Virus record (IMG/VR): IMGVR_UViG_2808606883_000001
Location: 3,917-67,916 of that record
DNA length: 64,000 bases
Origin: a virus
Taxonomy: Duplodnaviria; Caudoviricetes
Direction: 5' to 3' (one strand)
Shown: positions 3,997-54,689 of the stretch, one piece after another
Numbering within the stretch: the first letter of the stretch is position 1
Layout: every line of letters starts with the position of its first letter
Made by a program: the position numbers and the translations under genes
Notes under the pieces: model-generated
Told to the model about the DNA's origin: nothing
The model's input: the letters and a program-made list of their open reading frames with translations, nothing else
Databases searched by the model: none

Positions 3997-5361
3997 TCAA
4001 TGGCGGGTGCTCGACTCGCATAAGGCAGCGTGCCGAGGAAAGGTTTTCGTGAGTTCGCGATCGACAGCTTTGCCGAGCGAGCGCAGGAGATTCGCGAGCT
4101 GGGCGCGGTCCTGATGGCTTGCGGTCGCCTGCCGGAGTAGCCCGAAATACGAATTCGCGACTTGCATCAGGTCGCCGGGCGATGTCTCCGCGACACGCCG
4201 CAGCGCTTCATTACGCGTGCGCTTCCGCGTCTCGCGGCGCCACGGCTTGATCATCTGGCCGACGAAATCAATGCCGCGGTCGATCGGCTGAAGGATCGTC
4301 TTGCGCGGATTGATCCGCGCGCCCAGCCGCGCTGGCAGAAAGGCCGTGACGTCGGCGAGAATTTCATTCAGGCGAGCCGGCGACTCGTGCAGAAACACGA
4401 AATCGTCGACGTATCGGATGTAGTGCCGCGCACCAAGCACGTGCTTCGCACGCTGGTCGAGCACGTCAAGATATACGTTCGCGAAGAACTGACTCGACAG
4501 GTTTCCGATCGGAAGGCCGAGATGCGGAGCTTGCTCAAGCAGCCGTTTATGCGGCGGCACGAGATTTATCATCGTCGGATCGCCGTGGTACACGTAGTCG
4601 GCCCGTGGATCGTGCATCAGCACGGTTTCGGTCAGTGATCGCCAGAACGGCTCGGAAATCTTCGCGAGAAGCAGCTCGAGCAGGATTCGCTTGTCGATGC
4701 TGACGAAGAAGTTTGCGAGATCGCACTTCAGGTAGAAAGCGCGTCTGGACCAGTTCTGCGTGATCGAGCGCACTTTCGATTCGAGACGTTCGGCTGCGTA
4801 AAGCGTGCCACGGTCCTTGATGCAGGCACATGAATCGACGATGAAGCTGCGCTCGAAGCGCGGGCCGATCCGGTTGTAAAGCAGGTGATGCACGATGCGA
4901 TCGCGAAATGCAGCCGCCCAGACCTCGCGCGGCTTCGGTCGCGCGATGACGAAGCACGTTGAGCGGCCGGGCGTATAGCTGCCGTCGGCTAGCTCGTCGT
5001 AAAGGCGGCGCAGGTTGCGTTCGAGCCGCATCTCGAACGCCAACGCCGCATTGCTGTTTCGCTTCGTTCGCCGGCAGTCGAGATACGCTTCGACCAACTC
5101 GGCGAACGAAAATGGCCCTCGATCTGCGGACGGCGCGGGCGCGCAACTCGTTGTTCTGGTGGTTGTTGTTCTGGTTGCCGTTGTTGAAGTTCTGGTACCA
5201 CGCCCAGCCGGAAGTATCGTGCTATCTACGTCGCCCGGCCGATTGCTCAGCTGGGAAACTGCGCTGGACCTTTCCGCGCGCCGGCGGTCGGTTTCCTCAT
5301 TGCGCATGGCGGTGGCCTTGTGAGCCAGCGGCACGACCAGATTGATAGATCGCTCAGCCAT
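3997..5361 (-). CDS. DGR reverse transcriptase (start uncertain: 5379, 5361 or 5307)
   Basis: YLKCDLANFFVSI, GLPIGNLSSQFFANVYL (DGR-type GxxxSQ), RYVDDFV catalytic motif, GIDFVG. Confidence 0.95.
   Translation of the reverse strand: MAERSINLVVPLAHKATAMRNEETDRRRAERSSAVSQLSNRPGDVDSTILPAGRGTRTSTTATRTTTTRTTSCAPAPSADRGPFSFAELVEAYLDCRRTKRNSNAALAFEMRLERNLRRLYDELADGSYTPGRSTCFVIARPKPREVWAAAFRDRIVHHLLYNRIGPRFERSFIVDSCACIKDRGTLYAAERLESKVRSITQNWSRRAFYLKCDLANFFVSIDKRILLELLLAKISEPFWRSLTETVLMHDPRADYVYHGDPTMINLVPPHKRLLEQAPHLGLPIGNLSSQFFANVYLDVLDQRAKHVLGARHYIRYVDDFVFLHESPARLNEILADVTAFLPARLGARINPRKTILQPIDRGIDFVGQMIKPWRRETRKRTRNEALRRVAETSPGDLMQVANSYFGLLRQATASHQDRAQLANLLRSLGKAVDRELTKTFPRHAALCESSTRH
5123..5211 (-). 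repeat. DGR template repeat (TR), 89 nt
   Basis: Minus strand cc ggc tgg gcg tgg tac cag aac ttc aac aac ggc aac cag aac aac aac cac cag aac aac gag ttg cgc gcc cgc gcc gtc cgc aga: 9 AAC codons and a 14-nt G/C-only element near the 3' end. Confidence 0.97.
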
Positions 5362-5731
5362 GGAAGCCTTGACCTCCATGGAGCGGGCGATTGGTTGCGG
5401 ACTTCCTCCATGCAGTGGCCTGCTTGCCGATGCTCGTCGTCAACTCGATGGCGCGAGCATATGCGCCGCTGTCGACCTTGCGCTTGTTGAGGCCGAGCCG
5501 AAGTAGGAGATTGATCACCTGAAGGCGCTCGATGAGTTCCGTCAAATGCGGCGACTTGTCTCCGGCGACATTGGCGCGGTACACGAGCACGATGATCTCG
5601 ATGCACTCGAAGTTGATTTTCTCGCCGACCGAGCGTTTGAAGTTCCGCTGCATGTTTGTGACCACATCGGTCACGACATCCAGCAGATCTTCTGCGGCTC
5701 GATATATCGGCAGTTGGGTGTGCAGGGCCAC
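5354..5731 (-). CDS. avd: DGR accessory variability determinant (Avd-like four-helix bundle)
   Basis: 125 aa, helical, MALHTQLPIYRAA..., immediately upstream of TR and RT. Confidence 0.88.
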   Translation of the reverse strand: MALHTQLPIYRAAEDLLDVVTDVVTNMQRNFKRSVGEKINFECIEIIVLVYRANVAGDKSPHLTELIERLQVINLLLRLGLNKRKVDSGAYARAIELTTSIGKQATAWRKSATNRPLHGGQGFHG

Positions 5732-5745
5732 GATGGTTTAAATGA

Positions 5746-6231
5746 TCAAATTACCGAAGGGATAAATCTGCGGACGGCGCGGGCGCGCAACTCGCTGTCC
5801 TGGTGGATGTCGTCCTGGCCGCCGTAGTAGAAGTACTGGCACCACGCCCAGCCGGAGTTTTCCGAGTGCTGTTCGGCCGACCAGTAGGCCCGTTCCTGAA
5901 ACTCGCCCTTCAGGTTCGCGAAGAGAAGCGACTGCTCGCGGCGCGTCGGAAGCTCGCCACCGCGTTCGGCGGCCCATGCCTTCGCGTCGCTCCAGTTGAT
6001 GTCGTCCGCATCGCCGGGCAGCAGGATCAGGTAGTGGCTCAGAGATCCGTCGTCGTTCAGGATCGGGCCAGCGAATCGCTCGCCGGCGGCGAGCGGGATC
6101 GTTGCTGCGTCGATGCGATATTCCGTGGCGTGCGCCTGCGTCCTGAACGCCTCGATCATTGCGTCGATGCGCTCTTGATCCGCCTTGATGCGTGCCTGTT
6201 CGGCGTCGATCTGTTCAAGCGTGATCGTCAT
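5746..6231 (-). CDS. DGR target protein 1 (DUF1566/C-type-lectin-like with N-terminal coiled coil)
   Basis: LPTRREQ..YWS..GWAW...ELRARAVRR motifs; C-terminal VR1. Confidence 0.92.
   Translation of the reverse strand: MTITLEQIDAEQARIKADQERIDAMIEAFRTQAHATEYRIDAATIPLAAGERFAGPILNDDGSLSHYLILLPGDADDINWSDAKAWAAERGGELPTRREQSLLFANLKGEFQERAYWSAEQHSENSGWAWCQYFYYGGQDDIHQDSELRARAVRRFIPSVI
5767..5855 (-). repeat. Variable repeat VR1
   Basis: Colinear with TR; 11 mismatches, all at TR adenines. Confidence 0.97.
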
Positions 6232-6261
6232 TGCGATGCTCCGTTGTGAATGGGTGAAGGG

Positions 6262-6786
6262 TTAAATCGACAATCTGCGGACGGCGCGGGCGCGCAACTC
6301 GCCGTACTGGTGGTAGTAGCCCTGGTGGCCGTCGCCGAAGTCCTGGTACCACGCCCAGCCGGCGTATTCGGGGTCGTCGTCAGGCGTGTTCGACCAGTAC
6401 GCGGCCGGCTCGAACTGATCGCGGCACTTCTCGTACGCGATCACGAGCTCAGCACGCGTCGGCAGGTCGCCGCCGATCGACTTCGCCCAGTCCATCTGCT
6501 CTTGCCACGACGCGCGGTCGTGATCGCCGGGCAGCAGGATGGTGTGCGTGACGTCGCCATTCGCGTCGACGAAGCCGCCGAGGTAGACCTCGCCTTCGGC
6601 GAGCGCCACCGAAGTGATTCGCGCATACCGATTCAACGCTTCGGCGACCGTGGGGAGCCCAAGATCGAATTTGAAACTGCCGTCTTTCTTGACGTGAACA
6701 ATCTCTGGGTAGCCCTTCTCGTACGGGTTTAGTTCGACAGCGAACTTTTCGCCTTCAGCGAGCGGGAGAAGCTGGATCTGTTGCAT
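6262..6786 (-). CDS. DGR target protein 2 (DUF1566-like)
   Basis: ILLPGD..WAKSIGGDLPTR..YWS..GWAW..ELRARAVRR; C-terminal VR2. Confidence 0.92.
   Translation of the reverse strand: MQQIQLLPLAEGEKFAVELNPYEKGYPEIVHVKKDGSFKFDLGLPTVAEALNRYARITSVALAEGEVYLGGFVDANGDVTHTILLPGDHDRASWQEQMDWAKSIGGDLPTRAELVIAYEKCRDQFEPAAYWSNTPDDDPEYAGWAWYQDFGDGHQGYYHQYGELRARAVRRLSI
6274..6362 (-). repeat. Variable repeat VR2
   Basis: Colinear with TR; 12 mismatches, all at TR adenines. Confidence 0.97.
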
Positions 6787-6891
6787 GATTTCTCCTTGTT
6801 GATTTGAAAAGAGCGAAAAGGCGCATCACCGCCAGCACTTACCGAGATCATCGCCGTTAGGCTTCATCGTGGCTGGGGTGGGCGCGTGAGG

Positions 6892-7665
6892 TTAGGCGGC
6901 TTGCTTGCGAAGCGCGTGCTCGTAGTGATCTACAAAGACGGCAAACTCCCACAGATCTTTCTCCATCGCTTCGATAAACGAATCGTCGCGTTTGACTTCG
7001 ACCATGGTGAATTGCTTGCCGACAGATGCGAGCGCGGGACAGTAGAGGCCTACGTGCCACCAATTCCGCCCACATAGCCACATTCCTCCCATAGCCTGCT
7101 CTTGCACTTCGGTAACGTCATGCTCAAGCACGATCGCGCGGAGTTTGTCGGGCGCAAGGAAACACTTGTATTCGCTGCCGCCATCGGGATCAATCAACCC
7201 GTCCGCACTGCAGCCGAAGCGGCCGTCCTCGGTTCGAACGAATCCTGCGCGTTTGACGAATAGTCCGGTGAGCGCTTCGTGCTCCATCCTCGCTTCGGGC
7301 TCGAGATCTCGTCCGCGGCGCATTTGCCATGTTTCGAAGCCTTCATCCAACGGCGCACCGCTGATGCGCTCGACGGCCAGTCGGAAAGCGTAGTCCTTCG
7401 CAACGTCAGACCAATCACCCACCTTCTCGCCCTTGAGTGCGCGCTTGACGCCCTCCGAACTGGGCATCGTCTTGTAGCCGGCGAACTCTGCTGCTTGCTT
7501 CTCCGTCATGCCACTGATAACCGCATCAACATATTTCTGTTGGCGCTCGTCCAGGCAGTTGACCCTTTCTCGCACCGTCGAAAACATGCTGGCCGTTATG
7601 CAGCCGGCTCTAGCTCGAAACCACTCTTCGCCGCCCTGCGGGCACTCGATAATCTGAACGCTCAT
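6892..7665 (-). CDS. YqaJ-like/lambda-exonuclease-family recombination nuclease
   Basis: QGGEEWFRARAGCITAS, RGRDLEPEAR, GCSADGLI, EYKC motifs. Confidence 0.88.
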   Translation of the reverse strand: MSVQIIECPQGGEEWFRARAGCITASMFSTVRERVNCLDERQQKYVDAVISGMTEKQAAEFAGYKTMPSSEGVKRALKGEKVGDWSDVAKDYAFRLAVERISGAPLDEGFETWQMRRGRDLEPEARMEHEALTGLFVKRAGFVRTEDGRFGCSADGLIDPDGGSEYKCFLAPDKLRAIVLEHDVTEVQEQAMGGMWLCGRNWWHVGLYCPALASVGKQFTMVEVKRDDSFIEAMEKDLWEFAVFVDHYEHALRKQAA

Positions 7666-8573
7666 TGCGCCCCTCCTTGCTCTCGCGCGAGTTGCTGTTT
7701 TAAGTCCTCTTCGAGGTCATCGTCGGCGCCAGGCTCATGTTGTGGCAGCTCAGCTTGTTTGGCGGGTAGAGACTTGCTCTTTTCTGCCATCGCGGCCTTG
7801 AAGGCATCCGATGCGCCAGCATCTTTCGCGGCGTTGATTTCCTTGACGCCACGTTTCCAGAGTGCGTCAAACTCTTCGCGCGTCTTGACGGCTTTGACTT
7901 CCTCGACCAGTTTCTGTGCAAGGGCGCTAAGCACCGGCTCACCCGCACCCTCCTGCCCCGCCAGGTGGTCGCGAAGCGTTTCGTCCAACTCTTCCAGATC
8001 CTGAGAAAAGATGTCCGACGCAGCCGTGACATTGAGAACCATCGCCATCTTGGCTCGCTTGCAGGCCATTTTCAGGACCGTGTTTGCGAGATCGGATGGT
8101 TCCGTGCGCACCTGATTGGCCTTATAGAACCCGCCTCCCTGCTTCTTGCCAAACTTCACTCGGCGCATCGTCGCTGGCGTGATCTCGAATTCCTCATCAC
8201 AGACGGCACCGCGCCACTTGTATTTCTCTTCGCCGGTGGATGCCTCGCCCATGCCCGACCCGAGTTCGATTCCGCTCGTTTGATGTTTGCCAACGCACGT
8301 CACCCGGTAGCGGATCATGTCCGGCGTGGACAGATCGTCGATCCGGTATTCATCAGCAATTCGGAACGACATACACAGTACTTCGGCGCCAGCCTTGTAA
8401 AGCGCCGGCTTCGGCGTGCCAGGAATCTTCCCGTAGTGGACGTTTTCCTTCATCACGGCGCGCATGACTTCCTGCACGGCTGCAGCGTGGGCCACAACCT
8501 CCATGGCCGACATGCGGCCCGCGTTGACTAGCGCTGCCGGAGCACGTTGGGGCATTTCGATGATTTCGTTCAC
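7662..8573 (-). CDS. Putative single-strand annealing/recombination protein
   Basis: Translationally coupled upstream of the exonuclease; YGKIPGTPKPALYKAGAE and NTVLKMACKRA motifs; subfamily not determined. Confidence 0.6.
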   Translation of the reverse strand: MNEIIEMPQRAPAALVNAGRMSAMEVVAHAAAVQEVMRAVMKENVHYGKIPGTPKPALYKAGAEVLCMSFRIADEYRIDDLSTPDMIRYRVTCVGKHQTSGIELGSGMGEASTGEEKYKWRGAVCDEEFEITPATMRRVKFGKKQGGGFYKANQVRTEPSDLANTVLKMACKRAKMAMVLNVTAASDIFSQDLEELDETLRDHLAGQEGAGEPVLSALAQKLVEEVKAVKTREEFDALWKRGVKEINAAKDAGASDAFKAAMAEKSKSLPAKQAELPQHEPGADDDLEEDLKQQLAREQGGAQ

Positions 8574-9805
8574 GCAGCAATCTCCATCCAAACATGCCGC
8601 CCAAGCCAGTGCTTGGCGACTTCGATTGATACGTCGTAGTGGTCGGCGAGAACTTGTAGGAGTTCTGCGGGCTCAGGTCCGGTCGTTTCGAACTCGACCA
8701 GTTCGCGTCGAATCCGCTCAGCCTCAGCAGCCGCTTGTTCTGCCGCAATGCGCTGTTGTTCGGCAAAGATGCGATCCGCTTCCGTTTGGGCGATTGCAGC
8801 CTGTTCGGCGGCGATTCGTTCGGCTTCGGCGCGGGCCGCTTGCTCTGCGGCTTCCGCAGCCTCGCGAGCCTTACGCTCCTGCTCTTCTTGGGCGGCGGTA
8901 ATGACAGCCTGCTGGCGCGCTAACTCTGCACGCTGCTCGGCCAGTAGCGCCTCTTCTGCCTCACGCTGTCGGCGCAATTCCGCTTCCGCTGCTTCGCGTT
9001 GGCGACGCAATTCAGCCTCGTGTGCTTCGCGTTCGGCTCGCAAACGGGTCTCTTCGGCCTCTCGTGCCGCGCGTTGTTCGGCTTCGATACGCTCGCGCTC
9101 GGCGCGGTCTTTGGCTTCCTGTTCAGCGCGCGCTGCAGCCGCTTGGCGGTCGCGTTCTTCCTGTTCGACCCGGAGCCGCGCAAGTTCTTCACGTTCTGCC
9201 GCGAGCCGAGCTTGTTCGGCTTCGTGTGCAACCTGTGCGGATAGCATATCATTCAGCTTCGACACAGTCATGAGGTGAACTGCCTTGGCTTCGTCTGCAA
9301 ACTCGCCGAACGATTCTTCGGCGATCTCAACCGCCTCCAGCCCCTCAATCGCCGCCGCAATGGTTGCCGACTGCTTGCCGACCAGCATGGCCGGAATCGC
9401 TTGGATCTCCGCGATGCGCTTTCGGATGCCGTCGACTCGCGCTTTCTCTGCCGCAGCTTTGGCGGCTTTCTCGCGCTCGACCTCTGCATCCCAAGCGTCC
9501 CGGAGATCTTGCAGGCGCGTTTCCTCCGGTTCGGCCAGGGCAACAAGGCGCTTCTCTTCGGCAATCACCGCTTTGGAGAACGCCGTCGCATCCTCGCGTG
9601 CAGCCTTGGCGGCCTTCTCAATGGCGACCCTAGTATTCTTCAGCGTCATCATCGCGCCATGGCATTGCTCGCGACCGTCCTTGTTCTTGACTTCCGTGAT
9701 CGTCGCCGACTTGGCGACCAGATCGCGAAGTTCCTGTTCGTACTTCGGCGCGCCCAGCGCAACAGCGGCGCGCTCGGGCAACGTCAGTTGCTTTTCTTCG
9801 CTCAC
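8570..9805 (-). CDS. Long coiled-coil phage protein
   Basis: A/E/R/Q-rich heptads over more than 200 aa, typical position upstream of recombination genes. Confidence 0.75.
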   Translation of the reverse strand: MSEEKQLTLPERAAVALGAPKYEQELRDLVAKSATITEVKNKDGREQCHGAMMTLKNTRVAIEKAAKAAREDATAFSKAVIAEEKRLVALAEPEETRLQDLRDAWDAEVEREKAAKAAAEKARVDGIRKRIAEIQAIPAMLVGKQSATIAAAIEGLEAVEIAEESFGEFADEAKAVHLMTVSKLNDMLSAQVAHEAEQARLAAEREELARLRVEQEERDRQAAAARAEQEAKDRAERERIEAEQRAAREAEETRLRAEREAHEAELRRQREAAEAELRRQREAEEALLAEQRAELARQQAVITAAQEEQERKAREAAEAAEQAARAEAERIAAEQAAIAQTEADRIFAEQQRIAAEQAAAEAERIRRELVEFETTGPEPAELLQVLADHYDVSIEVAKHWLGRHVWMEIAA

Positions 9806-9824
9806 GTTCTTCTCCTTCCCTTAA

Positions 9825-10184
9825 TCACATGTGATCGCTGCAATGACTAACCCCGCTATCCCCCGCCCCGCAATCCTTCCCGCACTGCGAGCATGACGTC
9901 GATGCGAAGCGCGGTTCGACGCTCATAACCCCCGCCTTCACCAGCGCCGTTTCCATCACAATCCGAACGCTCGACTGGATCGCTGGGATGCTTTCGAGCG
10001 CTATTTGAAGAGCGAGGGCCATGTCGGGAGCGCTTTCTATCAACGCCTCATTTGCATCCGCCTGCTCTATCCCGGCTCCAGACCAGACCTCGCAGATGAC
10101 CTGAAGTTGACCGTCAACGCGTACTCCGATCTGGCGGTGACCAATGCGCTCCCACGAACCGCTTGTAAATTTCAGCTCTCTCAC
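9825..10184 (-). CDS. Hypothetical protein with C-terminal CxxC motif
   Basis: GGAGG then GTG at 10184, overlapping the upstream stop. Confidence 0.6.
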   Translation of the reverse strand: MRELKFTSGSWERIGHRQIGVRVDGQLQVICEVWSGAGIEQADANEALIESAPDMALALQIALESIPAIQSSVRIVMETALVKAGVMSVEPRFASTSCSQCGKDCGAGDSGVSHCSDHM

Positions 10185-10372
10185 GCCACCTCCTTCGGCA
10201 TCAACTCCGGGCGGTAATGGCCGGAATAATCTGGAGACAGCAGCCACCGACTCCCCAGCGCGCGAATTGCTTGCAGGCGCTTGTTTTCGTTGATGGCGGC
10301 GAGGCGTTCGTCGGGGGCTAATGCGGTTTGGAAATCTTTCAGGTCTTGATTGCGTTGCGGCGTGCGGAACAT
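10181..10372 (-). CDS. Small hypothetical protein
   Basis: GGAGGA RBS before MFRTPQRN. Confidence 0.55.
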   Translation of the reverse strand: MFRTPQRNQDLKDFQTALAPDERLAAINENKRLQAIRALGSRWLLSPDYSGHYRPELMPKEVA

Positions 10373-10373
10373 G

Positions 10374-10478
10374 TCATCCTCCCAACAATTGTTTGATAAC
10401 CAGCGTCGCAAACGCAGCAACCAATCCCGCCGCCGACGCAACGAAGATGCTGGTGCGGGTAAGTTCGTCGTGGATCAT
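10374..10478 (-). CDS. Small membrane peptide (34 aa)
   Basis: MIHDELTRTSIFVASAAGLVAAFATLVIKQLLGG, with RBS. Confidence 0.45.
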   Translation of the reverse strand: MIHDELTRTSIFVASAAGLVAAFATLVIKQLLGG

Positions 10479-10486
10479 GATGGCTC

Positions 10487-10810
10487 CTATCGCCACACGC
10501 TGACTGTTGCGTTCGGATTTGCTGCGCACGCCTTGATGTATTCAACTAGCCATGGGATGAAGCCGTCGTAGCTTCCCCATCCGTTTTCGGGGTTGAATCG
10601 TTGGTAGTGGACTGGGCGCCGCAGCATATCCATCAGTCCATCGGTCAATGGAACCACGAGATCGCGAGCATGTTTGATGTCGATTTCCTCGGGTCGCCAC
10701 AGGTGTTTGTAAATCCCTGCGGCATTGGCCATCTTGTTCAGGTTGTGCGTGATGTTGGCCGAATAGACTTCGTTACCATCCGCATCATTAAGATAAACAT
10801 CAAGGCTCAT
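10487..10810 (-). CDS. Phage hypothetical protein
   Basis: NITHNLNKMA..AGIY..NPENGWGSY pattern common in phages. Confidence 0.75.
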   Translation of the reverse strand: MSLDVYLNDADGNEVYSANITHNLNKMANAAGIYKHLWRPEEIDIKHARDLVVPLTDGLMDMLRRPVHYQRFNPENGWGSYDGFIPWLVEYIKACAANPNATVSVWR

Positions 10811-11090
10811 CGCATCATCTCCACATACCCGATATCAGCCTCACGCCGAAGCTCGTCGTACTCCTCCCAGCTAGCTGCGCGCTCGGCCTCGGTCAGCGGC
10901 TTCTCCGGCTCGTCTCCCGATCCAGCAAGCAGCCAGTCATCGTGGAGCGAATCTTTGTCGACAAGTCTCATAATTTGTACTCCGAATTAGTCAGAGCTAC
11001 TTTTCACCGTCCCCACTGCGATCCGGTGCGCCGTGTCGCGAGCATGGCGCTGGCCGTCGAGAGTGGTTCGAATGGGTTTCGCCCTGATGG

Positions 11091-11219
11091 ATAGGAGCCG
11101 GGAGTTGAACCCGGAACTGCCGGCAATGTCTGGTTTTACGGTTTAGAGTTCTGGCGCCTCGCTTACCAACGATTTGCGGAACCATAGCCGCCTGCGTCTA
11201 CCAATTTCGCCACTCCTAT
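11091..11219 (-). ncRNA. tRNA-like element with greatly expanded anticodon/variable region
   Basis: Acceptor ATAGGAG/CTCCTAT, Leu-type D-arm TGGCGAAATTGGTAGACGC, T-arm CCGGG-TTCAACT-CCCGG; 129 nt; no CCA end. Confidence 0.7.
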
Positions 11220-11280
11220 CCATCAAGGCTTCGGGCATCCCACCCGAACAGGCACTCTTCAGCCGTGCTGGTTTCGATAT

Positions 11281-11529
11281 TCAATCAAATCGAATCGTCG
11301 CGCCCTTCATCCATCCAGAGCAGACGACACCCGTAACGAACTGGCCAGTCGGCCCGCGCGCTTCAAAGCCCGTCGAAAAGATGTCGTGCTTATCGCAGCC
11401 GAAGAATGAATATCCGGTGATGCTCACGTCTTTGAAGCCAGCACCCGCGAGTGCTTTACGTGCACCGGGTTCATCGGTGCATCCGGCTAAGGCGACTATC
11501 GCAAGGACCATCAATGCAAATCGTTTCAT
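11281..11529 (-). CDS. Small lipoprotein
   Basis: Signal peptide with lipobox LAGC. Confidence 0.8.
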   Translation of the reverse strand: MKRFALMVLAIVALAGCTDEPGARKALAGAGFKDVSITGYSFFGCDKHDIFSTGFEARGPTGQFVTGVVCSGWMKGATIRFD

Positions 11530-11678
11530 GCCGCCACCTCCTTGTAAGTCTCCATCGCATACTCCGGATAGCCAGAGATGGCGTAGCTGATCGCCTGTGC
11601 GATGCGGTCCATCAGCTTTCGGTCTTCGGCGTTGCGGGCGCGCTCATAGGCCCGGCGCAGCTTCCAAATTTCGATCAT
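11526..11678 (-). CDS. Small hypothetical protein
   Basis: MIEIWKLRRAYERAR..., coupled to the lipoprotein start. Confidence 0.55.
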   Translation of the reverse strand: MIEIWKLRRAYERARNAEDRKLMDRIAQAISYAISGYPEYAMETYKEVAA

Positions 11679-11894
11679 GATCTTCTCTATGCGCCCGCAC
11701 AGTTTTCGCGTCAATCACGCCTATTGGCGATTGATTCTTTGCGAGCAAAAAGTTTTCAGCACCACGGGATAGCCGACCACGGAATCTGTCGCACCGCTAT
11801 GCCATTGACGTATTCGGTGAAATGATCGTGCCAGTGGATCAGTAACGTGTGAGAGATGCGTGGGCGCGGATAGGTGAAATCTGCGTAGAGCACA

Positions 11895-12101
11895 TCAGGC
11901 CTCGTCTGCGTCGATCGCCTCGAGCATGTCAACATCGCTCTCGGTCATGCAGTGCGTGTCATCAGCGTCAATCAGCTCGACGCCGTCTCGTTTCAGAGAG
12001 ACGCCCTCGCGTGCAGCTTCGAGCGACGAGAATTCGCCTAGCCAGCGCTCACCTGCATACAAAGTGCCGCCTATATACGTGAAATCCTGATTCCAGTTCA
12101 T
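11895..12101 (-). CDS. Small acidic hypothetical protein
   Basis: GAGGA RBS before MNWNQDF. Confidence 0.6.
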   Translation of the reverse strand: MNWNQDFTYIGGTLYAGERWLGEFSSLEAAREGVSLKRDGVELIDADDTHCMTESDVDMLEAIDADEA

Positions 12102-12179
12102 TTTGTCATCCTCGCCGCGAGTGACCGCGATAGCGTTAGGGTTAGGCGGCTTCTTTCTCTTCTGATTCCGTCGATTCAA

Positions 12180-13180
12180 CCCAATGGCCGGTCATAAGAT
12201 TGGTTGGCTTGGTCTTGGCGATGACGCGGCCGGAAATCATCCAGCTCGAGATGCGCACTCGTAGCGCCGCGAATATGCCGAAGTCCTCACCGGCTTTGAT
12301 GCCCGAACCGGCGCACAACGAAAACTTAAATTTGGAGCCGCTAACGGCGGCAAGTCGAGCGATGGATAAGGGTCGCTAGGTCTCCACTTGGTAGACATTT
12401 AAGGGGACCGTCTTGAAGTGGGAAGCCATCCAGTCCCCGTAAGAACACTCATTGAATGCGCTTACGGGGCAGCTGCTTACGGCAGCCAGTCGAACGTACT
12501 TGTTTCTCGCCAGTTGAGCACTCAGTCGTCATCGAGTGGGCTCGGTACTGCTGCAATTCTTCTGGGTGAGTGCTGGCGCTATACAGCGACCTTCGGCTAA
12601 CCTACTGCGATGCGCCAGACACTTCGGCCACGGCGTCTTATACGGCTCAGATTCGCGAATACTCAGTCGCGTAGGGAGTTCAGCGACTCACTCAGAAGAA
12701 CTGCTTGCCCGCATCGGCACCGGCTACACCCTGCTATGCAGGCTCCGGCTACCGATGCGGTGAAACTACTGCTACCCTTCCCGGGTTGTTACTCAGCTCA
12801 TTGATTACCACGCCATCAATGATCCATTTCGGCGCCTTTCGGAAGCATTCCCGTCGATACGGTTCAGCCATTTCTGCTCTTCGTACTACTCTCATGTGGC
12901 AGGAGTCAGACATGTGTGCGCTCGGGCTTTCGCCGTGACACCTTTTATCGCTACGTTGTGGATCGAATGTCGTCAGGGCTGGCGGCTTGGCCGGTCGTGA
13001 CTCCGGCTACCCGTTTTAACTGTTGTAACCCCACCTGCGCTGCGCGGAGCCGAAGAACTTGGTAGTTAATCGGGATGGCTCCCATTCAATGCGCTAGGGT
13101 TGCAGGCCGGCTCCTGCTTGCGTTGCGTGTCTACTCTCCACGCCGCAAGTCGCCAGCACTGACTAACACTCGATTCCACG
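12180..13180 (-). ncRNA. Candidate long structured non-coding RNA in the early-left transcript (strand inferred from context)
   Basis: About 1 kb without a credible ORF; many inverted repeats (12435-12443/12461-12469; 12557-12571/12686-12700; 12709-12717/12752-12760; 12798-12805/12815-12822). Confidence 0.5.
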
Positions 13181-13181
13181 C

Positions 13182-13193
13182 TGTTAAAGAACA
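13182..13193 (-). promoter_or_regulatory. boxA-like antitermination site
   Basis: TGTTCTTTAACA, one mismatch from the boxA consensus TGCTCTTTAACA, oriented with the leftward operon. Confidence 0.55.
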
Positions 13194-13284
13194 TCCTCAG
13201 CTTCGAGGCGCGCCCGTTGGCGCTGGTACTGCGTGCTATTCGCAGTAGAGAATATCGATCTCGATACTCGCCACTGAAAACAAA

Positions 13285-13800
13285 TCAACCTTTTGCAAAT
13301 CTCCCGTGATACTTCTCGGCTCCGCTGCAATAGGCCTCGTGCGCTTCCTCTGGAGTTCTGTAATACCCGAGGAAAATATCCTTTCCATCCACTTTGATCA
13401 TCGCCTTCCAAAGGCGAGAAAATTTGTGGAACGTCACCCCTTTAAATCCGGAAGTATTGTTCTTGTTCTTCCCCCGATTTCTTTGGTTCTCTGCGTTTGT
13501 GCAGATCCTCAAATTCGACTTGCGGTTGTCGCTCCTGTTTCCATTGATATGGTCAACTACACGCTTATCCCCCGGCATCAACCGCATGACTTCACGATGC
13601 ATCAAGATTGTCTTTCTCTGTCCGTCAACCCGCTTCCTGCCCTGCATGTAGCCGCCGCTGTTGCAAAACCATGTGACGTCCATAACCAACGCCAAATCTT
13701 CCGCATCAAGCAATGCCACCTTTCCTTGAGAGGTGATGATGGCAGCTGCCGACTCAGCAGAAGCATCGTCACGGAGCTCAATTTCGGTGCTGGTGCTCAT
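13285..13800 (-). CDS. HNH homing endonuclease with C-terminal AP2 domain
   Basis: MHR..VVDHINGNRSDNRKSNLR (HNH) then NTSGFKGV..WKAMI..LGYY.TPEEAHEAY (AP2). Confidence 0.92.
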   Translation of the reverse strand: MSTSTEIELRDDASAESAAAIITSQGKVALLDAEDLALVMDVTWFCNSGGYMQGRKRVDGQRKTILMHREVMRLMPGDKRVVDHINGNRSDNRKSNLRICTNAENQRNRGKNKNNTSGFKGVTFHKFSRLWKAMIKVDGKDIFLGYYRTPEEAHEAYCSGAEKYHGRFAKG

Positions 13801-13820
13801 CTTGAACAGAAATTACCGAA

Positions 13821-14201
13821 TTACTGAATAATCAGTCTGCGGACGGCGCGGGCGCGCAACTCGTAGCCCTGGAGGAGGTTGCCCTGGTTGCCGTAGCCGA
13901 AGTGCTGGCACCACGCCCAGCCGGCATAGGCTGGGTCGGTGTCCGGCTCGTTCGACCAATATGCATCGCGTTCGAACTGATCGCGATGATTGGCCAGAAG
14001 CACCAGATGCTCGATACGAGTCGGCAGATCGCCACCGATGCTCTTTGCCCAACCCATCTGGACCTGCCAGGTCGCGTCGTCGTTGTCACCCGGAAGCAGA
14101 ATGACGTGATGCAGCTCGCCGGCCGTGTTGCTGATCCTTCCGATGTAGATCTCGCCTTCGTTGAGTTCAGGCAGTTCGACTTCTTGCTTCATTGCTTGCA
14201 T
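13821..14201 (-). CDS. DGR target protein 3 (remote, DUF1566-like)
   Basis: GGAGG RBS before ATG 14201; paralogue of target 2; C-terminal VR3. Confidence 0.92.
   Translation of the reverse strand: MQAMKQEVELPELNEGEIYIGRISNTAGELHHVILLPGDNDDATWQVQMGWAKSIGGDLPTRIEHLVLLANHRDQFERDAYWSNEPDTDPAYAGWAWCQHFGYGNQGNLLQGYELRARAVRRLIIQ
13836..13924 (-). repeat. Variable repeat VR3
   Basis: Colinear with TR; 13 mismatches, all at TR adenines. Confidence 0.97.
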
Positions 14202-15725: not shown

Positions 15726-16502
15726 TCAGGATGGCGCCCATTCGTCTACATAGTGAGTGAAGGAGGCCATCGCTCCAATCACCTCGAGGCCATCCCTCTC
15801 GCTATGCAGCGTCGCGAAGTCGCTGTTGAGTGGGACGAGTTCGAACGTCATCTTGCCTCGTTCGTCTAGCCCCAGCTCTTTGTACTTGCGCACGACCGAG
15901 CTGCCGCCGCGGATCCGGCCCAGCACGATGTCGCCCGGTTTTGGGGCGCGAGCTGGATCAATCGTTACCACGACATGAAGCCGATCAAACTTAGGCTCCA
16001 TTGCGGCGTCATGGATCAGAACCGCGAACGCGGCCCCCGACATCGGCTGGTGAATCGTTACGGTGCCGATGGGTGCGCCGATAGTGTTGGGATCAGTCTG
16101 GGGAGTCATCTGAGCGGCCATCTCATACGACAAAACAGGGATCGTTCTAGGCAATGGTAGAACGTTTGCGCCAAATTGTACCGACGTTTCCCAGATCTTA
16201 AGACGACGCTGAGTAGGAATTTCCCTAAGGAGGGGCGTCTTCTCGCCTCTTATCGATGCATCGTCCGCACTTGTTTTGTGCTTGGGCGACTCGCGCATTT
16301 CCCCTTTGCCGCTTTGTAGCCAGGTTGCGCTTACCCCTCCCAACGCTCGGGCGAGCGCCAGGATGTGTTTTGATCCTTTGTTTCTTCCCCGTTCGATCTG
16401 CGCAACAGTCGATTGCGAAATGCCTGCAGCCTTGCCCAGCTCATCCTGAGACATTCCCAAGCTCTCGCGCGTCTCGCGGACTCTATCGCCGAAAGTTCTC
16501 AT
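15726..16502 (-). CDS. cI: CI-like repressor (XRE HTH plus degenerate S24 domain)
   Basis: N-terminal HTH (SQDELGKAAGISQSTVAQIERG), C-terminal S24-like fold (LVPLNSDF), divergent from cro. Confidence 0.92.
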   Translation of the reverse strand: MRTFGDRVRETRESLGMSQDELGKAAGISQSTVAQIERGRNKGSKHILALARALGGVSATWLQSGKGEMRESPKHKTSADDASIRGEKTPLLREIPTQRRLKIWETSVQFGANVLPLPRTIPVLSYEMAAQMTPQTDPNTIGAPIGTVTIHQPMSGAAFAVLIHDAAMEPKFDRLHVVVTIDPARAPKPGDIVLGRIRGGSSVVRKYKELGLDERGKMTFELVPLNSDFATLHSERDGLEVIGAMASFTHYVDEWAPS

Positions 16503-16568
16503 ATTGCGAGTGTATTAGGTCGTGCAAGCGCATTGGTACTTGCAGATCAAGTACAAATGCAATACTAT
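16503..16568 (+). promoter_or_regulatory. OR region: three operators and pR
   Basis: ATTGCGAGTGTATT (16503-16516), AGCGCATTGGTACT (16527-16540), AGTACAAATGCAAT (16550-16563) match the OL sites; pR -35 TTGCAG (16540), 17 bp spacer, -10 TACTAT (16563). Confidence 0.72.
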
Positions 16569-16578
16569 GGTTCTTACC

Positions 16579-16839
16579 ATGAATGCAGCCGACATCGTCA
16601 AGGAACTCTCGGAGCGCGGACTGACGCAACTGGAAATCCAGCGTCGCTCCGGCGTCCACCAGTCTACCGTTTCTGCCATCAAGACCGGCAGGCGCGGCAC
16701 CAACATTCGCCACGATATTCACATGAAGCTTCAGACGCTGCTTGATGAAGTTCGGGCCGAGAGCAAGTCGACAACAGATGATGCTCAACCTCCGGCCGGG
16801 GGATCTGTCAGTAAAACGAAGGAATACCCCGAAGGCTAA
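16579..16839 (+). CDS. cro: Cro-like HTH protein
   Basis: LTQLEIQRRSGVHQSTVSAI HTH, divergent from cI. Confidence 0.85.
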   Translation: MNAADIVKELSERGLTQLEIQRRSGVHQSTVSAIKTGRRGTNIRHDIHMKLQTLLDEVRAESKSTTDDAQPPAGGSVSKTKEYPEG

Positions 16840-17494: not shown

Positions 17495-17676
17495 CAGAGA
17501 ACCGAATTTTCAACGGCCCGGCGCTCGTCGTGATCGATGTTGAGACCAAGACGTACGCACGGTACTTCGGCAACAAAAGAACGCTGGCGGCTCGCGGAGA
17601 AGAATTCCTGACGCCAGTTGAGGTTGAAATGTTCCGCGTCGATCCGCGCAAGTTCATGGGTATCGAGGCGGCTTAA
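17491..17676 (+). CDS. Hypothetical protein
   Basis: ATGA-coupled ORF. Confidence 0.6.
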   Translation: MTENRIFNGPALVVIDVETKTYARYFGNKRTLAARGEEFLTPVEVEMFRVDPRKFMGIEAA

Positions 17677-17689
17677 CACCGGGAGCAGC

Positions 17690-18340
17690 ATGAGAATCCT
17701 TCCAGACTTTGAAGAATGGCCCGGAGTCATCGCTGGGTTCGCGGATACCGCCGACAGCTTCGAAATTCTCGGCATCGGGTGCGTTCGTCCGATGATCGGC
17801 GGCGTTTTTGGATTCCAACGATTCTGGATGTCGTCGGCACCGTACGTCAAGGGTGGACTCGATGAGGTCCGCTATTTTGTGATTGAAAGGTCTTGCGGTG
17901 TGCCATTTGGAATCGGCGATACGAAAGCCGCCGCCATTTCCCAGGCTCGATGGTTTGTGACCAGTTACGGCGATTATTTCGATTCCCTGGTCGCAATGAT
18001 CATTGCCGAGCGCCAACGCCGGCAAGCCGAGCGTGTGCAGCAGGCCAAAGATGCCACCCGAGCCCTGATCGATGAAGTGAGATCGGCGCGGGTCGAAGAA
18101 AAGCGCATCCCGCGCCGTCGTCGTCAGGTCTTCGAGAAATCGAACGGTTGCTGCCACTACTGCAGCATGCCGCTCGACCTGTACGGCAAATGGCATGTCG
18201 AGCACATGATGCCGAAGGCGCTGGGTGGCTCCGACGAGCCCGGCAACCTCGTCGCCTCTTGCGTCCCATGCAACATGAAGAAGAAGGACAAGACTGCCGA
18301 GGAATTCATCGCAGAGCGAGCCAAGCAGGAGGCAGCATGA
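17690..18340 (+). CDS. HNH endonuclease-domain protein
   Basis: CCHYC..WHVEHMMPKALGGSDEPGNLVASCVPCNMKK. Confidence 0.88.
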   Translation: MRILPDFEEWPGVIAGFADTADSFEILGIGCVRPMIGGVFGFQRFWMSSAPYVKGGLDEVRYFVIERSCGVPFGIGDTKAAAISQARWFVTSYGDYFDSLVAMIIAERQRRQAERVQQAKDATRALIDEVRSARVEEKRIPRRRRQVFEKSNGCCHYCSMPLDLYGKWHVEHMMPKALGGSDEPGNLVASCVPCNMKKKDKTAEEFIAERAKQEAA

Positions 18341-31141: not shown

Positions 31142-31213
31142 TTAGGGCTATGGTAACGGTAGCCGGCCGGCCTCCAAATCCGTGCAGTCCCGGTTCAAAT
31201 CCGGGGCCCTATG
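31142..31213 (+). tRNA. tRNA-Trp(CCA), atypical (weak anticodon stem, no encoded CCA)
   Basis: Anticodon loop CTCCAAA, T-arm CCCGG-TTCAAAT-CCGGG, acceptor TAGGGC/GCCCTA. Confidence 0.65.
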
Positions 31214-31289
31214 CAGAAGGTGAAATTAGCGACGCGCTTGGCGATAGCCACCTACGGGTCACGCGGTCGCGCGAAAGTAGCCTCCTTAT

Positions 31290-31368
31290 CTGAGTGTATT
31301 GTCAGTCTGGTCAGACGGCCGCGCCTGGAACGCGGAGGACGGTGGTTCGAATCCATCCACTCAGACCA
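31290..31368 (+). tRNA. tRNA-Pro(TGG)
   Basis: Acceptor CTGAGTG/CACTCAG, stem CCGCG/CGCGG around CCTGGAA, TTCGAAT loop, ACCA end. Confidence 0.9.
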
Positions 31369-31376
31369 CATCACGC

Positions 31377-31452
31377 AGCGGGATGGAGCAGTTGGAAGCT
31401 CGTCGGGCTCATAACCCGAAGGTCGACGGTTCAAGTCCGTCTCCCGCTACCA
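31377..31452 (+). tRNA. tRNA-Met(CAT), initiator-like
   Basis: TCGGG-CTCATAA-CCCGA with three G:C pairs, A11:U24, ACCA end. Confidence 0.93.
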
Positions 31453-41716: not shown

Positions 41717-41817
41717 CTGTAAGCCCTGCGGATAGGTGGCGCAACCGACAAGCGCGTTCCCCCTGGCGCGTTTCCGCAGGCATTCCTCACAGGGGTTTCC
41801 TATCAGGGGAACTACAC

Positions 41818-44887: not shown

Positions 44888-46255
44888 ATGGCGAATAACA
44901 TCGTCACGGTGAATGTGTCGCAAACCATTGCGCCAACACCGTCGAATCTCCAGCGCACCGGCGCATTCATCTCGCAAGGCGGCACAACGCTCACTGCCGG
45001 TACGTACAGTCTTCTCACGTCCTCGTCGTCGCTTACGTCGCTTTTGACCGCGGCTCAGACCATCACTTCGATGACGTGGGCCACCAATACGGTCACGGTC
45101 ACGGTGAGCGGCGGTCACGGTTACCCGACCGGCAAAACGCTCAACCTGACCATTGCCGGCGTCACTCCAGCTGGCTACAACGGGACGTTCGCCTGCACGA
45201 TCACGTCGACAACCCAGTTCACGTATCCGCTCGCGTCGAACCCGGGGTCGGTAACCACGCAAGGCACGGTGGTCGTTGCGAACCAAGCCGTTCTGTCGGC
45301 GATGAACACGACGTTTTTCGCCCAGCCCGGTAACCTTTCGGTCTACGTTCTCGAGCTCGGCCCGACGATGTCGACCGATGGCATCACGGCACTGAACAAC
45401 TTCATCACGGCGAACCCGGGCGTTTTCTATTCGTACCTTGTTCCGTACGGCTGGGATGCAGACGCAACGTATCCGGCATTCCTGCAGAATTACAACTCGA
45501 CGACAGCGAAGACATACTTCTTCACCACCGTCACGCTGACGACGTATAGCAATATCAGCAATCTGCAGAAATGCTGCCCGATGCTGATTCAAGCGACAAA
45601 CGCCCCCTCGACAGAATTCACGATGGCGGCGATGTTCTGGGCAACACTCAACGCCAATCCGTCTTCGTCGAACAAGGTCCCGCCGCTTGCCTTCACGTTC
45701 CTGGTTGGCTCGACTGCGGGTTCGTGGACCGGCACGCAAAAGGCGACGTTCAAGACGAACAACGTCAACTTCGTCGATACCGGTGCCGAGGGCGGCATCA
45801 GCAACACGCTGCTGAAGTGGGGAACCACGCCGGATGGCAACCCTTGGAACTATTGGTATTCGGTTGACTGGGTTCAGATCAATCTGGATCTGAATATCGC
45901 CAACGCGATCATCAACGGGTCGAACACGAACATCAACCCGCTGTACTATAACCAGGACGGCATCAACCGATTGCAGTCGGTGGCGTCGAACACGCTTGCC
46001 AACGCGGTTTCGTATGGGTTGGCGCTCGGTCAGTTGGTCACGACACAGCTTGACCCGACTGGTTTTGCGAGCAATGTGTCGCAAAACCAGTATGCCGGCC
46101 AAGTCGTCGTCAATGCGGTTCCGTTCGCCACGTACAACCAGCAGAACCCGAGCGACTATTCAATCGGTAAGTATTCCGGCCTCGCCGCGGTGTACACGCC
46201 GCAGTTCGGCTTCACACAGATCATCTTTAACCTGAACGTTACGACGTTTGCTTAA
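44888..46255 (+). CDS. Tail sheath protein (DUF3383-like)
   Basis: MANNIVTVNVS; WYSVDWVQINL; YNQDGINRLQ motifs; 455 aa. Confidence 0.85.
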   Translation: MANNIVTVNVSQTIAPTPSNLQRTGAFISQGGTTLTAGTYSLLTSSSSLTSLLTAAQTITSMTWATNTVTVTVSGGHGYPTGKTLNLTIAGVTPAGYNGTFACTITSTTQFTYPLASNPGSVTTQGTVVVANQAVLSAMNTTFFAQPGNLSVYVLELGPTMSTDGITALNNFITANPGVFYSYLVPYGWDADATYPAFLQNYNSTTAKTYFFTTVTLTTYSNISNLQKCCPMLIQATNAPSTEFTMAAMFWATLNANPSSSNKVPPLAFTFLVGSTAGSWTGTQKATFKTNNVNFVDTGAEGGISNTLLKWGTTPDGNPWNYWYSVDWVQINLDLNIANAIINGSNTNINPLYYNQDGINRLQSVASNTLANAVSYGLALGQLVTTQLDPTGFASNVSQNQYAGQVVVNAVPFATYNQQNPSDYSIGKYSGLAAVYTPQFGFTQIIFNLNVTTFA

Positions 46256-46269
46256 CGGGGTAATTGGAC

Positions 46270-46728
46270 ATGGCATCTAATCCAGCAACCAATCCCCTGA
46301 TTGCACAGGGAACGCTGAATCGACTGCGCGGGAGCGTGGTCGTTCAGAGTTTGCCGAACCTGAACATCACGAGCCCTTTCTTGGGCAAGGAGGGTATTCG
46401 CCTTGCTCTCGAAGGGGAATCGACAGCGATTCTGCAAACGATGACGGGAACGGCTACGTCGCCGGAGCCGTACATGATCGCATCGGTGACGGCCGCCGTG
46501 TTGAAGACGAACGGTCTCGGAGCGCAGTACAAAGCACAGATGGAGCAGAACTCGGTGATCGGCCAGATCACTGTGATCCCTGACACGTCGGCGCTGCCCC
46601 AGTACACGCTCTACAACTGTGCGATCGAGTCGGTCCGCGAAATGCCTATGGATGGTACGGACGCAACATTCACCGTAACCATCCGCGGATACTACGTGAC
46701 CAACAATAACCTCTGGAATCTCACCTGA
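46270..46728 (+). CDS. Tail tube protein
   Basis: Follows the sheath; about 150 aa; QGTLNRLRGSV. Confidence 0.75.
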   Translation: MASNPATNPLIAQGTLNRLRGSVVVQSLPNLNITSPFLGKEGIRLALEGESTAILQTMTGTATSPEPYMIASVTAAVLKTNGLGAQYKAQMEQNSVIGQITVIPDTSALPQYTLYNCAIESVREMPMDGTDATFTVTIRGYYVTNNNLWNLT

Positions 46729-46758
46729 TTCTAAGGGGCAGGCATACAGGGGTGCCTA

Positions 46759-47304
46759 ATGAAACTTGATCGAAAGCTAAATCTGGTGCTCAACATCGAG
46801 AGCGGGCATGTTCATCATGCCCCGATCTCGAAGGAAGTATTTGAGCGCTACTTCCTGCCCATCTCGAAGACCTTCACGCGTATCTATGCGGAGGGCCTTG
46901 GCTCGATGGCTGGGCCGCGCGTCGCCGCCATGATGCTCAAGAAGGTCGCGCAAGACGACAATATCTGGGAAGGTGTGGATGGCGTTGAGAACGGCCTGAT
47001 GAATGAGATCAGGCGTCTCACCAACGTCGTTCTTCCTAGTGAGCAAGGATGGTCAACGCTTCCGTACTACGAAGCGCTTCGCCAGGACATGCTGGATGAG
47101 GACGAGGTCTCAGAGGTGGAAAACGCACTCTGTTTTTTTACGTGTGCGGTGAGCATGCACAAAAAGAACGAGCGGAATGTGATTGTTGGGGCGATGACGC
47201 TCTTCTGGGGCGGTCAAATCACCTCATCGGGTCTTATGGAATTCGCTCGTTCCTTGCCGACATCGACAGCCGACGAGAATACTGGCGAGAAGGCGACAGC
47301 GTAG
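46759..47304 (+). CDS. Tail assembly chaperone
   Basis: Between tube and tape measure; contains slippery T7 run. Confidence 0.75.
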   Translation: MKLDRKLNLVLNIESGHVHHAPISKEVFERYFLPISKTFTRIYAEGLGSMAGPRVAAMMLKKVAQDDNIWEGVDGVENGLMNEIRRLTNVVLPSEQGWSTLPYYEALRQDMLDEDEVSEVENALCFFTCAVSMHKKNERNVIVGAMTLFWGGQITSSGLMEFARSLPTSTADENTGEKATA

Positions 47305-47441: not shown

Positions 47442-47443
47442 AC

Positions 47444-49180: not shown

Positions 49181-49189
49181 GGGAATCGC

Positions 49190-50404: not shown

Positions 50405-50412
50405 GGGGCTGA

Positions 50413-54664: not shown

Positions 54665-54689
54665 AGTCGCCGTTGAACATACCTGTTAC

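Follow-up and report, generated by a model that had tools for sequence, protein, structure and literature searches.

A DGR with one template repeat and three short lectin-fold targets in a temperate Burkholderia-type provirus

The provirus carries a genuine diversity-generating retroelement (DGR), consisting of a reverse transcriptase (RT), an Avd protein, one 89-nt template repeat (TR) and three target genes that end in variable repeats (VRs). With high confidence, this is the complete DGR of a temperate, myovirus-type prophage that is grouped with Burkholderia phage Magia, and comparison with related genomes indicates that it is probably active in this copy. In the proposed mechanism, a single transcript would bear both the structured RT-15 RNA and the 89-nt TR, and RT and Avd would copy the TR to cDNA, placing random bases opposite template adenines. 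Guided by the GC-rich 27-nt end that all copies share, the cDNA would then replace the matching 89 nt at the 3' end of one or another of the three target genes, and the TR itself would be left unchanged. The outcome could be up to about 1e11–1e12 binding-face variants of three small, soluble lectin-fold proteins, with selection retaining the scaffold (three Gln, one Glu and the C-terminal LRARAVRR). Current activity of this copy, the way cDNA is primed, the function of RT-15 and expression from an early operon are our inferences.

Template repeat, variable repeats and the adenine signature

The TR lies on the minus strand at nt 5123–5211 and contains 26 adenines among its 89 nt. A preliminary description of this DNA had proposed one TR and three colinear VRs, with 11, 12 and 13 mismatches, all at adenines. 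An ungapped minus-strand comparison agrees exactly: VR1 (nt 5767–5855) differs from the TR at 11 positions, VR2 (nt 6274–6362) at 12 and VR3 (nt 13836–13924) at 13, and 36 of 36 mismatches fall at TR adenines. The non-A mismatches that it had suggested looking for on realignment are not present. The chance of 36 random positions all falling at A is P ~6e-20 (hypergeometric product, 6e-23). A pattern with N at every TR adenine has exactly four copies in the window (the whole 64,000-nt stretch analysed), i.e. the TR and the three VRs, and zero in shuffled sequences, while the 27-nt 3' end of the repeat occurs four times across the whole 67.9-kb provirus record.

Read in the VR frame, the TR includes 9 AAC codons, 3 CAG, and one each of TAC, CAC, GAG and AGA. 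The 15^9 (3.8e10) combinations previously calculated from the nine AAC codons are thus correct in both count and arithmetic. The three CAG codons, said to be unchanged in all VRs, are the same in the three VRs here, in 10 VRs of four sequenced relatives, and likewise in 13 further VRs from IMG/VR proviruses. Among the VRs of this provirus and the four sequenced relatives, CAG adenines are changed in 0 of 39 cases, compared with 59% of AAC adenines (P ~5e-16).

Upstream of the VR, the DNA of target 2 is 67% identical to that of target 3, and within the VR all 63 of the 63 non-A positions equal the TR. This bears out the earlier claim that each VR was diversified separately, and VR1–VR3 were written individually from one TR as common source, each being homogenised to it. 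The three proteins are indeed paralogues (scaffold identity 34–60%), as expected if the repeats were an ordinary C-terminal motif of a paralogous family that had gathered point mutations under diversifying selection, with no reverse transcription. However, the mismatches are confined to the 26 A positions of a fourth copy, which stands beside the RT and outside a coding frame (P ~1e-20), and flanks that are 67% identical contrast with non-A VR positions that are 100% identical. The mismatch spectrum refutes an origin by ordinary point mutation, which can be given practically no credence.

All four copies contain a 14-nt run made up of G and C only (nt 5131–5144, 5775–5788, 6282–6295 and 13844–13857). 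It had been described as preceding the IMH, as in BPP-1; the run is present as claimed, but in BPP-1 the G/C run is itself the first part of the IMH (Wu 2018), so the placement does not hold. The TR and VRs show no difference over the 27-nt GC-rich end and diverge only past AGA, so that a distinction between IMH and IMH*, if there is one, has to come after this point; TR and VR ends identical in this way have been recorded (Wu 2018). A GC-rich inverted repeat was not found after any VR, and DNA folds of the 75–80 nt downstream were no better than those of shuffled sequences. BPP-1 and Legionella need such a repeat to home efficiently, and it is found in only 34% of DGRs (Wu 2018), so it is not family-defining.

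The RT, Avd and RT-15 cassette and its recent activity

The RT gene (nt 3997–5307, minus strand) matches Pfam RVT_1 (6e-13), and the two motifs reported earlier, YVDD and GNLSSQ (here IGNLSSQ), are both seen in its translation and fit the YxDD and [I/L]GxxxSQ motifs of the DGR clade. Among solved structures the nearest is bRT of BPP-1 (8ub7, E 8.5e-35), with a group II intron RT reaching only 2e-7; the bRT match is 27 orders of magnitude better than those to group II intron or retron RTs. NCBIfam is without a DGR RT model, and matches of the RT in that collection fall under their cut-offs. The frame is open as far as nt 5379 and is intact over 436 codons, catalytic motifs included. When frames and starts were compared, the interval from the TR to the conserved N-terminus of the RT proved to hold no canonical start codon. 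The start was provisionally placed at the ATG at nt 5307, which is kept in all five Burkholderia-type relatives and agrees with the curated start in Magia, and with this start the TR lies inside the RT ORF.

The avd (accessory variability determinant) gene (nt 5354–5731, minus strand) encodes a four-helix bundle of 125 aa. Its presence, also reported before, is confirmed by Pfam bAvd at 46.9 bits (cut-off 40); the match to NCBIfam DivGenRetAVD (E 4e-10) is under the cut-off of that model, and a sequence search of PDB chains gave no match to Avd. Directly 5' of the TR lies a full-length RT-15 RNA motif (Rfam RF03018; nt 5210–5392, minus strand; model positions 1–192; 171.2 bits, gathering score 82), which begins at the 3' end of avd and extends into the opening bases of the TR. 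The motif occurs at the same position in six relatives (156–188 bits), its stems show compensatory changes, and it is presumably the 5' scaffold of the DGR RNA. Its consensus fold holds no conserved pairing with the 3' end of the TR. A strong hairpin 3' of the TR (nt 5055–5110) was considered as a conserved structure and rejected, as it is not retained in the Pseudomonas relatives and carries an unfavourable covariation term.

Pairs of closely related phages provide a view of recent change. Two GenBank records of one phage, vB_Sb_QDWS (QDWS) and zrk29-1, show 31 differences in 47,902 bp, of which 27 are inside two VRs, 26 are at TR adenines and none is in the TR; one of the rewritten VRs is the counterpart of that in the remote target 3. 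Similarly, vB_E192a and vB_PL1 have 33 differences in 2701 bp, 29 of them in the two VRs and 0 in the rest of the cassette, including the TR. Over 13 VRs of five phages, A-site mismatches number 155 and non-A mismatches 1. Variation in related prophages, another check put forward in the preliminary description, therefore takes the form of A-specific VR changes with TR and flanks unchanged. As read from these aligned genomes, the pairs show that the VRs of close relatives, the remote target included, must have been rewritten very recently. The TR is the same, or one or two bases off, in ten other phages or proviruses in which the avd region is only 80–85% identical, and is 100% conserved in proviruses with that level of avd identity.

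It may be asked whether the present copy is a fossil, in which the VRs were diversified in the past, homing has ceased and the pattern is frozen. The lack of a downstream inverted repeat, the lack of a canonical RT start codon past the TR, and an insertion in target 2 (see below) would all fit this. The strain itself is represented at contig level: ten public runs are isolate assemblies in contig form, and of the four compared, the source assembly shows no variants, and the three related strains are at ~90% identity with contigs that break at the repeats. A fossil is nevertheless improbable given that RT, Avd and RT-15 are all intact, the TR is the same as in other proviruses, close relatives have been rewritten so recently, and the VRs have 0 non-A changes in 3 x 63 scaffold positions, where ordinary drift would add some.

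Target proteins and their place in the prophage

The three targets are proteins of 126–174 aa without signal peptide or hydrophobic segment, and their VRs stop 15–21 nt short of the stop codons. All are encoded on the minus strand. Target 1 (T1; nt 5746–6231, 161 aa) has a C-type-lectin/DUF1566 domain, preceded by a heptad-patterned, amphipathic N-terminal helix that is conserved in a subfamily of ~150-aa proteins and is one heptad longer in this copy. Target 2 (T2; nt 6262–6786, 174 aa) also has the lectin domain, and before it a 159-nt in-frame insertion (about nt 6599–6757, 53 codons) between two copies of an AEGE motif. Its close homologues are of 120–121 aa and are without the insertion, and contigs of two related strains skip nt 6598–6758. 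In the predicted model of T2 the lectin core has pLDDT >90 and residues 1–60 are of low confidence. The insertion is unusual, and could impair T2. Target 3 (T3; nt 13821–14201, 126 aa) lies 8.6 kb away from the TR and consists of the lectin domain alone; a GGAGG stands eight bases ahead of its ATG. Its AlphaFold2 model (pLDDT 96.3) best matches the Legionella Lcl C-terminal domain (8q4e, TM 0.67), with C-type lectins next, and the closest folds include the extracellular adhesin tips of Lcl, the Bdellovibrio Bd2740 fibre and intimin.

Two proteins that join the lectin domain to other domains were rejected as clues to function. In P0174 the lectin domain is combined with an SNF2 N-lobe; this protein is a genuine DGR target, lies beside Avd and RT, and has its mismatches at A in 9 of 10 cases, but it is known from a single 2.9-kb metagenome contig and has only half a helicase, so is probably a chimera. 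P0156 (ParB_N) derives from a frameshifted assembly.

The provirus is temperate, myovirus-type and Burkholderia-type, with a cI-like repressor gene (nt 15726–16502), a cro-like gene (nt 16522–16839) and, ~3 kb outside the left end of the window, an integrase. Exonuclease and methylase genes adjoin the DGR cassette, and an HNH-AP2 gene follows T3. On the prophage map the targets lie in a leftward operon beside the cI/cro switch, ~40 kb from the tail fibre genes; the genes for tail sheath, baseplate and fibres (nt 44888–58090) are on the strand opposite to the DGR, and the targets are not themselves tail fibres. A scan of the window for the N-at-A pattern found no VR copies in the fibre genes, and scans for promoters and terminators gave background levels only. 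The same layout is seen in Pseudomonas phages Haboob and Cruim01.

Our best guess is that the targets act as variable ligand-binding proteins outside the tail and are produced from the leftward operon under repressor control, and this is the weakest step of the explanation. All phage DGRs with a known role diversify a receptor-binding protein (Roux 2021), so the targets could instead be virion parts, i.e. small adhesins attached to the tail fibres in the manner of gp38 in T2-type phages, with the DGR serving to switch receptors as in BPP-1. The nearest folds, being extracellular adhesin tips, fit such a role, the N-terminal helix of T1 could serve to dock or oligomerise, and on the circular genome of the phage only a few kb separate the cassette from the lysis and integrase genes located after the fibre genes. 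On the other hand, the targets are on the strand opposite to the late operon, within a leftward operon beside recombination and methylase genes, a position conserved across Burkholderia and Pseudomonas phages; T3 has no attachment module, and the fibre genes are without any VR. Targets that form part of the virion are, on this evidence, rather unlikely.

A joint reading, in which the targets are non-virion, intracellular binders and the geometry of cDNA priming is also unlike that of BPP-1, is put forward tentatively, at somewhat below even chances. The targets would then form an acidic, signal-less, lectin-fold repertoire, antibody-like, directed against variable molecules of the host or of rival phages, such as defence proteins or surface-glycan precursors, and cDNA would be primed with the conserved RT-15 scaffold lying 5' of the template, in a system whose RT would be translated across the template it copies.

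The provirus adds one well-preserved three-target example to a catalogued class of DGRs. Its main use is as a clean test case, as the targets are tiny and soluble, one has a fold of very high confidence, and the template is short; near-identical genome pairs in nature already reveal sites of turnover against fixed ones (three Gln, one Glu). Questions for the whole phage group, raised already in the Magia announcement (PMC7883833), are the ligands of early-region lectins, the need for up to three of them, and the part of an upstream RNA scaffold in cDNA synthesis.

Comparison with known DGRs

In Magia, a phage of Burkholderia cenocepacia (MT701587), the DGR is annotated as genes 44 (RT), 45 (Avd), 46, 47 and 57 (Microbiol Resour Announc 2021, PMC7883833), whereas the copies in vB_E192a, vB_PL1 and QDWS/zrk29-1 are unannotated. 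Over the 2.6 kb of RT, TR, avd and targets, Magia, vB_E192a and vB_PL1 have 82–83% nucleotide identity to the present provirus. The group shares the gene order target-target-avd-RT-15-TR-RT, flanked by the integrase end on one side and recombination genes on the other, and all members have RT-15 and two adjacent short lectin targets, to which Magia and QDWS add a third, some kb away near the immunity region. As annotated, the Magia RT ORF begins at the ATG corresponding to the one used here and likewise spans the TR. The TRs of the group are one or two bases off, with AAT in one codon that is AAC here, giving nine AAC codons in this provirus compared with eight. Differences are that the VR sequences diverge throughout, that this copy has the 53-codon insertion in T2, the extra heptad in T1 and the HNH-AP2 gene after T3, and that the remaining prophage is only partly related.

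The likeness to the prototype, the BPP-1 DGR (mtd-avd-TR-Sp-brt), is partial. Shared features are an RT homologous to bRT, Avd, A-specific differences between TR and VR, a VR at the C-terminus of a C-type-lectin fold, and a 14-nt G/C-only run at the 3' end. However, BPP-1 has one target, the tail-fibre protein Mtd, while there are three proteins of 126–174 aa here, encoded in the early-left region. In BPP-1 the conserved RNA is 3' of the TR, where the spacer is an RT-10 motif (Weinberg 2017), but RT-15 is 5' of the TR here, and the RT coding sequence comes directly after the TR or runs through it. The present DGR also differs in having no inverted repeat after the VR, and IMH and IMH* that are identical over their shared part.

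As in the LdtA DGR of Legionella pneumophila (category 'd', CLec2 VR class), the VR is in a lectin domain of DUF1566/Lcl_C type, and about half of category 'd' are short proteins of the lectin domain alone (Wu et al. 2018). According to Wu et al. 2018, LdtA is an outer-membrane-anchored surface lipoprotein, whereas the proteins described here are phage-encoded, without signal peptide or hydrophobic segment. The use of one TR for several targets, some of them non-adjacent, is shared with the DGR of Treponema denticola (TvpA and six further targets) and other multi-target DGRs, but the former is cellular, has a VR domain of FGE-sulfatase type, and has targets scattered over the chromosome. Multiple, non-adjacent and short DUF1566 targets have already been catalogued (Wu 2018), and the element is a further example of a known DGR system, not a new system.

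Template, variable repeats and signs of activity

All parts of the DGR lie on the minus strand of the window. The template repeat (TR; 5123-5211) is 89 nt long, contains 26 adenines, and aligns without gaps to three copies, the variable repeats VR1 (5767-5855), VR2 (6274-6362) and VR3 (13836-13924), which are carried by target genes T1, T2 and T3, respectively. The preliminary description had counted 11, 12 and 13 mismatches to TR, all at TR adenines, and this was borne out by ungapped computational alignment: 36/36 mismatches fall at adenines and none elsewhere (chance probability about 6e-20, given 26 A in 89 nt). With N in place of each adenine, the TR pattern has only four copies in the window and no match in shuffled sequences. 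The 27-nt 3' end, which includes the 14-nt G/C-only run and is identical throughout between TR and VRs, is found at four places in the full 67.9-kb provirus record; identical IMH and IMH* have been recorded in other cases (Wu et al. 2018). Read in the VR frame, the TR is GWAWYQNFNNGNQNNNHQNNELRARAVRR, and the figure of 15^9 combinations proposed for its 9 AAC codons is correct on recomputation.

Adenines of the three CAG codons were unchanged in the first set of VRs (0/39) and in 13 further VRs recovered with a search pattern that permitted change, as against 59% of AAC adenines changed (CAG vs AAC, P about 5e-16). As these adenines never change, and the corresponding Gln residues are nearly invariant throughout the wider target family, the structural constraint suggested earlier for these codons is well supported.

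The DGR is genuine and, as judged from sequence comparison, very probably active. T2 and T3 are just 67% identical over the 238 nt preceding the VR, while all 63/63 non-A positions of their VRs equal TR, so that the VRs must have been overwritten from TR after the target genes diverged. Across 13 VRs in five sequenced phages, whose TRs are no more than two bases apart, there are 155 mismatches at A sites and one at a non-A site. Variation among related prophages had been proposed as a check, and near-identical relatives do vary in their VRs while TR is unchanged. Between phages vB_E192a and vB_PL1, 33 of 2701 positions of the cassette vary (29 in two VRs, 4 at the far end, none in TR). Phages QDWS and zrk29-1 show 31 differences in a genome of 47,902 bp, 14 of them in one adjacent VR and 13 in the remote VR (the T3 counterpart), with none in TR or the third VR and 4 elsewhere; 26 of the 27 VR differences are at TR adenines. 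Sequence data can hardly come closer to a natural before-and-after experiment than this pair, which, by differing at the T3 counterpart, shows the remote target to be in use. In six further IMG/VR proviruses the TR scaffold is exactly shared, while the avd region is only 80-85% identical.

QDWS and zrk29-1 were deposited as 'Shewanella phage vB_Sb_QDWS' (OK094664) and 'Hujiaoplasma phage zrk29-1' (OP650936), i.e. the same genome (99.935% identical, gap-free) filed under two unrelated hosts. Their DGR cassette is 81% identical to that of the present Burkholderia-type prophage. At least one of the host assignments is doubtful, and possibly both.

Reverse transcriptase, Avd and the RT-15 RNA

The RT motifs noticed previously (YVDD, GNLSSQ) were found in ORF 3997-5379 (minus strand), which has an RVT_1 domain and reads YVDD and IGNLSSQ. 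Among solved structures its nearest relative is bRT, the reverse transcriptase of BPP-1 (8ub7; E 8.5e-35), and a group II intron RT matches at E 2e-7. The accessory variability determinant gene, avd (5354-5731, minus strand), exceeds the Pfam bAvd cut-off, confirming the earlier assignment.

Between avd and TR, and ending on the first TR bases, is a full-length match to the Rfam RNA motif RT-15 (RF03018; 5392-5210, minus strand; 171 bits vs a gathering score of 82). It occupies the same place in six relatives, and its stems show compensatory changes. Motifs RT-1 to RT-19 were found adjoining RT genes, and RT-10 of BPP-1 was placed between TR and brt, with the guess that other RT motifs serve other DGRs (Weinberg et al. 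2017). Unlike in BPP-1, the conserved RNA here is on the opposite side of the template. Searches for conserved structure 3' of TR, and for a GC-rich inverted repeat after each of the three VRs, found neither; downstream GC-rich inverted repeats occur in only 34% of DGRs (Wu et al. 2018).

The RT is likely to be translated through its template, since there is no ATG, GTG or useful TTG between TR and the conserved RT N-terminus (FSFAELVEAY), the frame is open across TR in all five Burkholderia-type copies, and an ATG at 5307 is common to all five. The counterpart of this ATG is the curated RT start in the Burkholderia cenocepacia phage Magia (MT701587). In Pseudomonas phage Haboob an ATG immediately follows the TR. 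Within 5123-5379 the open frame takes in all of TR together with the 3' half of RT-15, and ATG 5307, conserved in five relatives, is located at the base of a stem of RT-15; because of this overlap, one RNA may serve as mRNA, scaffold and template.

Target proteins

T1 (161 aa), T2 (174 aa) and T3 (126 aa from the ATG at 14201, with GGAGG upstream) all show weak Lcl_C/DUF1566 and FGE-sulfatase matches. Structural matches of the T3 model (pLDDT 96.3) include the C-terminal domain of Legionella Lcl (TM 0.67), the tip domain of a Bdellovibrio fibre, numerous C-type lectins and, in a viral structure library, phage DUF1566 proteins. The family forms 963 clusters at 50% identity, mostly of 115-200 aa, and 720 at 90% identity, mostly named from Burkholderia and Paraburkholderia; nearly all of the latter have one to three members, as expected of hypervariable proteins. 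T1-T3 carry net charges of -8 to -12, and no hydrophobic segment was found in them. The T1 subfamily has a conserved N-terminal helix with a heptad pattern, to which the present prophage adds one heptad. T2 contains a 159-nt in-frame insertion (6599-6757) between two AEGE motifs, absent from 120-121-aa homologues and from two related strains; in the T2 model the lectin core exceeds pLDDT 90, and the insert is predicted to be low-confidence or disordered. In a 2.9-kb metagenome contig, probably a chimera, the same lectin domain comes after an SNF2/DEAD helicase N-lobe in a DGR target (nt 174-1295) that adjoins Avd, RT-15 and RT and has 9/10 TR-VR mismatches at A.

Prophage context and relation to known systems

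The IMG/VR provirus record is rated complete. The DGR cassette is adjoined by genes for a YqaJ exonuclease and a C5 methylase. The cI-like repressor (15726-16502) and cro-like gene (16522-16839) are followed by the replication genes O and DnaB, which begin at 18873. The plus strand carries terminase, portal, sheath, baseplate and fibre genes at 34233-58090, and the integrase is located some 3 kb beyond the left edge of the window. These positions place the cassette in a putative leftward operon, apart from the tail genes, and a pattern search of the window found no VR in any fibre gene. Pseudomonas phages Haboob and Cruim01 have an identical layout, with two A-specific targets each.

Several other features were observed. 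An HNH-AP2 endonuclease gene (13285-13800) starts 21 nt past the T3 stop and a second HNH endonuclease gene (17618-18340) adjoins the immunity region; both look like homing-type insertions. Three successive tRNA genes (Trp-CCA, Pro-TGG, Met-CAT; 31142-31452) directly precede a DNA-repair-exonuclease-like gene, and an Rfam int-alpA RNA match (41725-41794; 43 bits vs a gathering score of 35.8) directly follows the major-head-like gene. In 4/4 strains compared, positions 11191-11213 and 11903-11926 are matched by a contig from another genomic place, with 431 other letters between the two stretches vs 689 in the window; the match may come from a small related element, or an RNA gene, on the host chromosome.

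[quoted passage not shown] 2018). The early-region position of the targets is an unusual trait, since viral DGR targets are mostly tail proteins (Roux et al. 2021), and is common to the whole phage group, not particular to the present prophage. The DGR belongs to an already known type; the announcement of Magia names RT, Avd and the IMH-bearing 'relatively short reading frames' 47 and 57 (PMC7883833).
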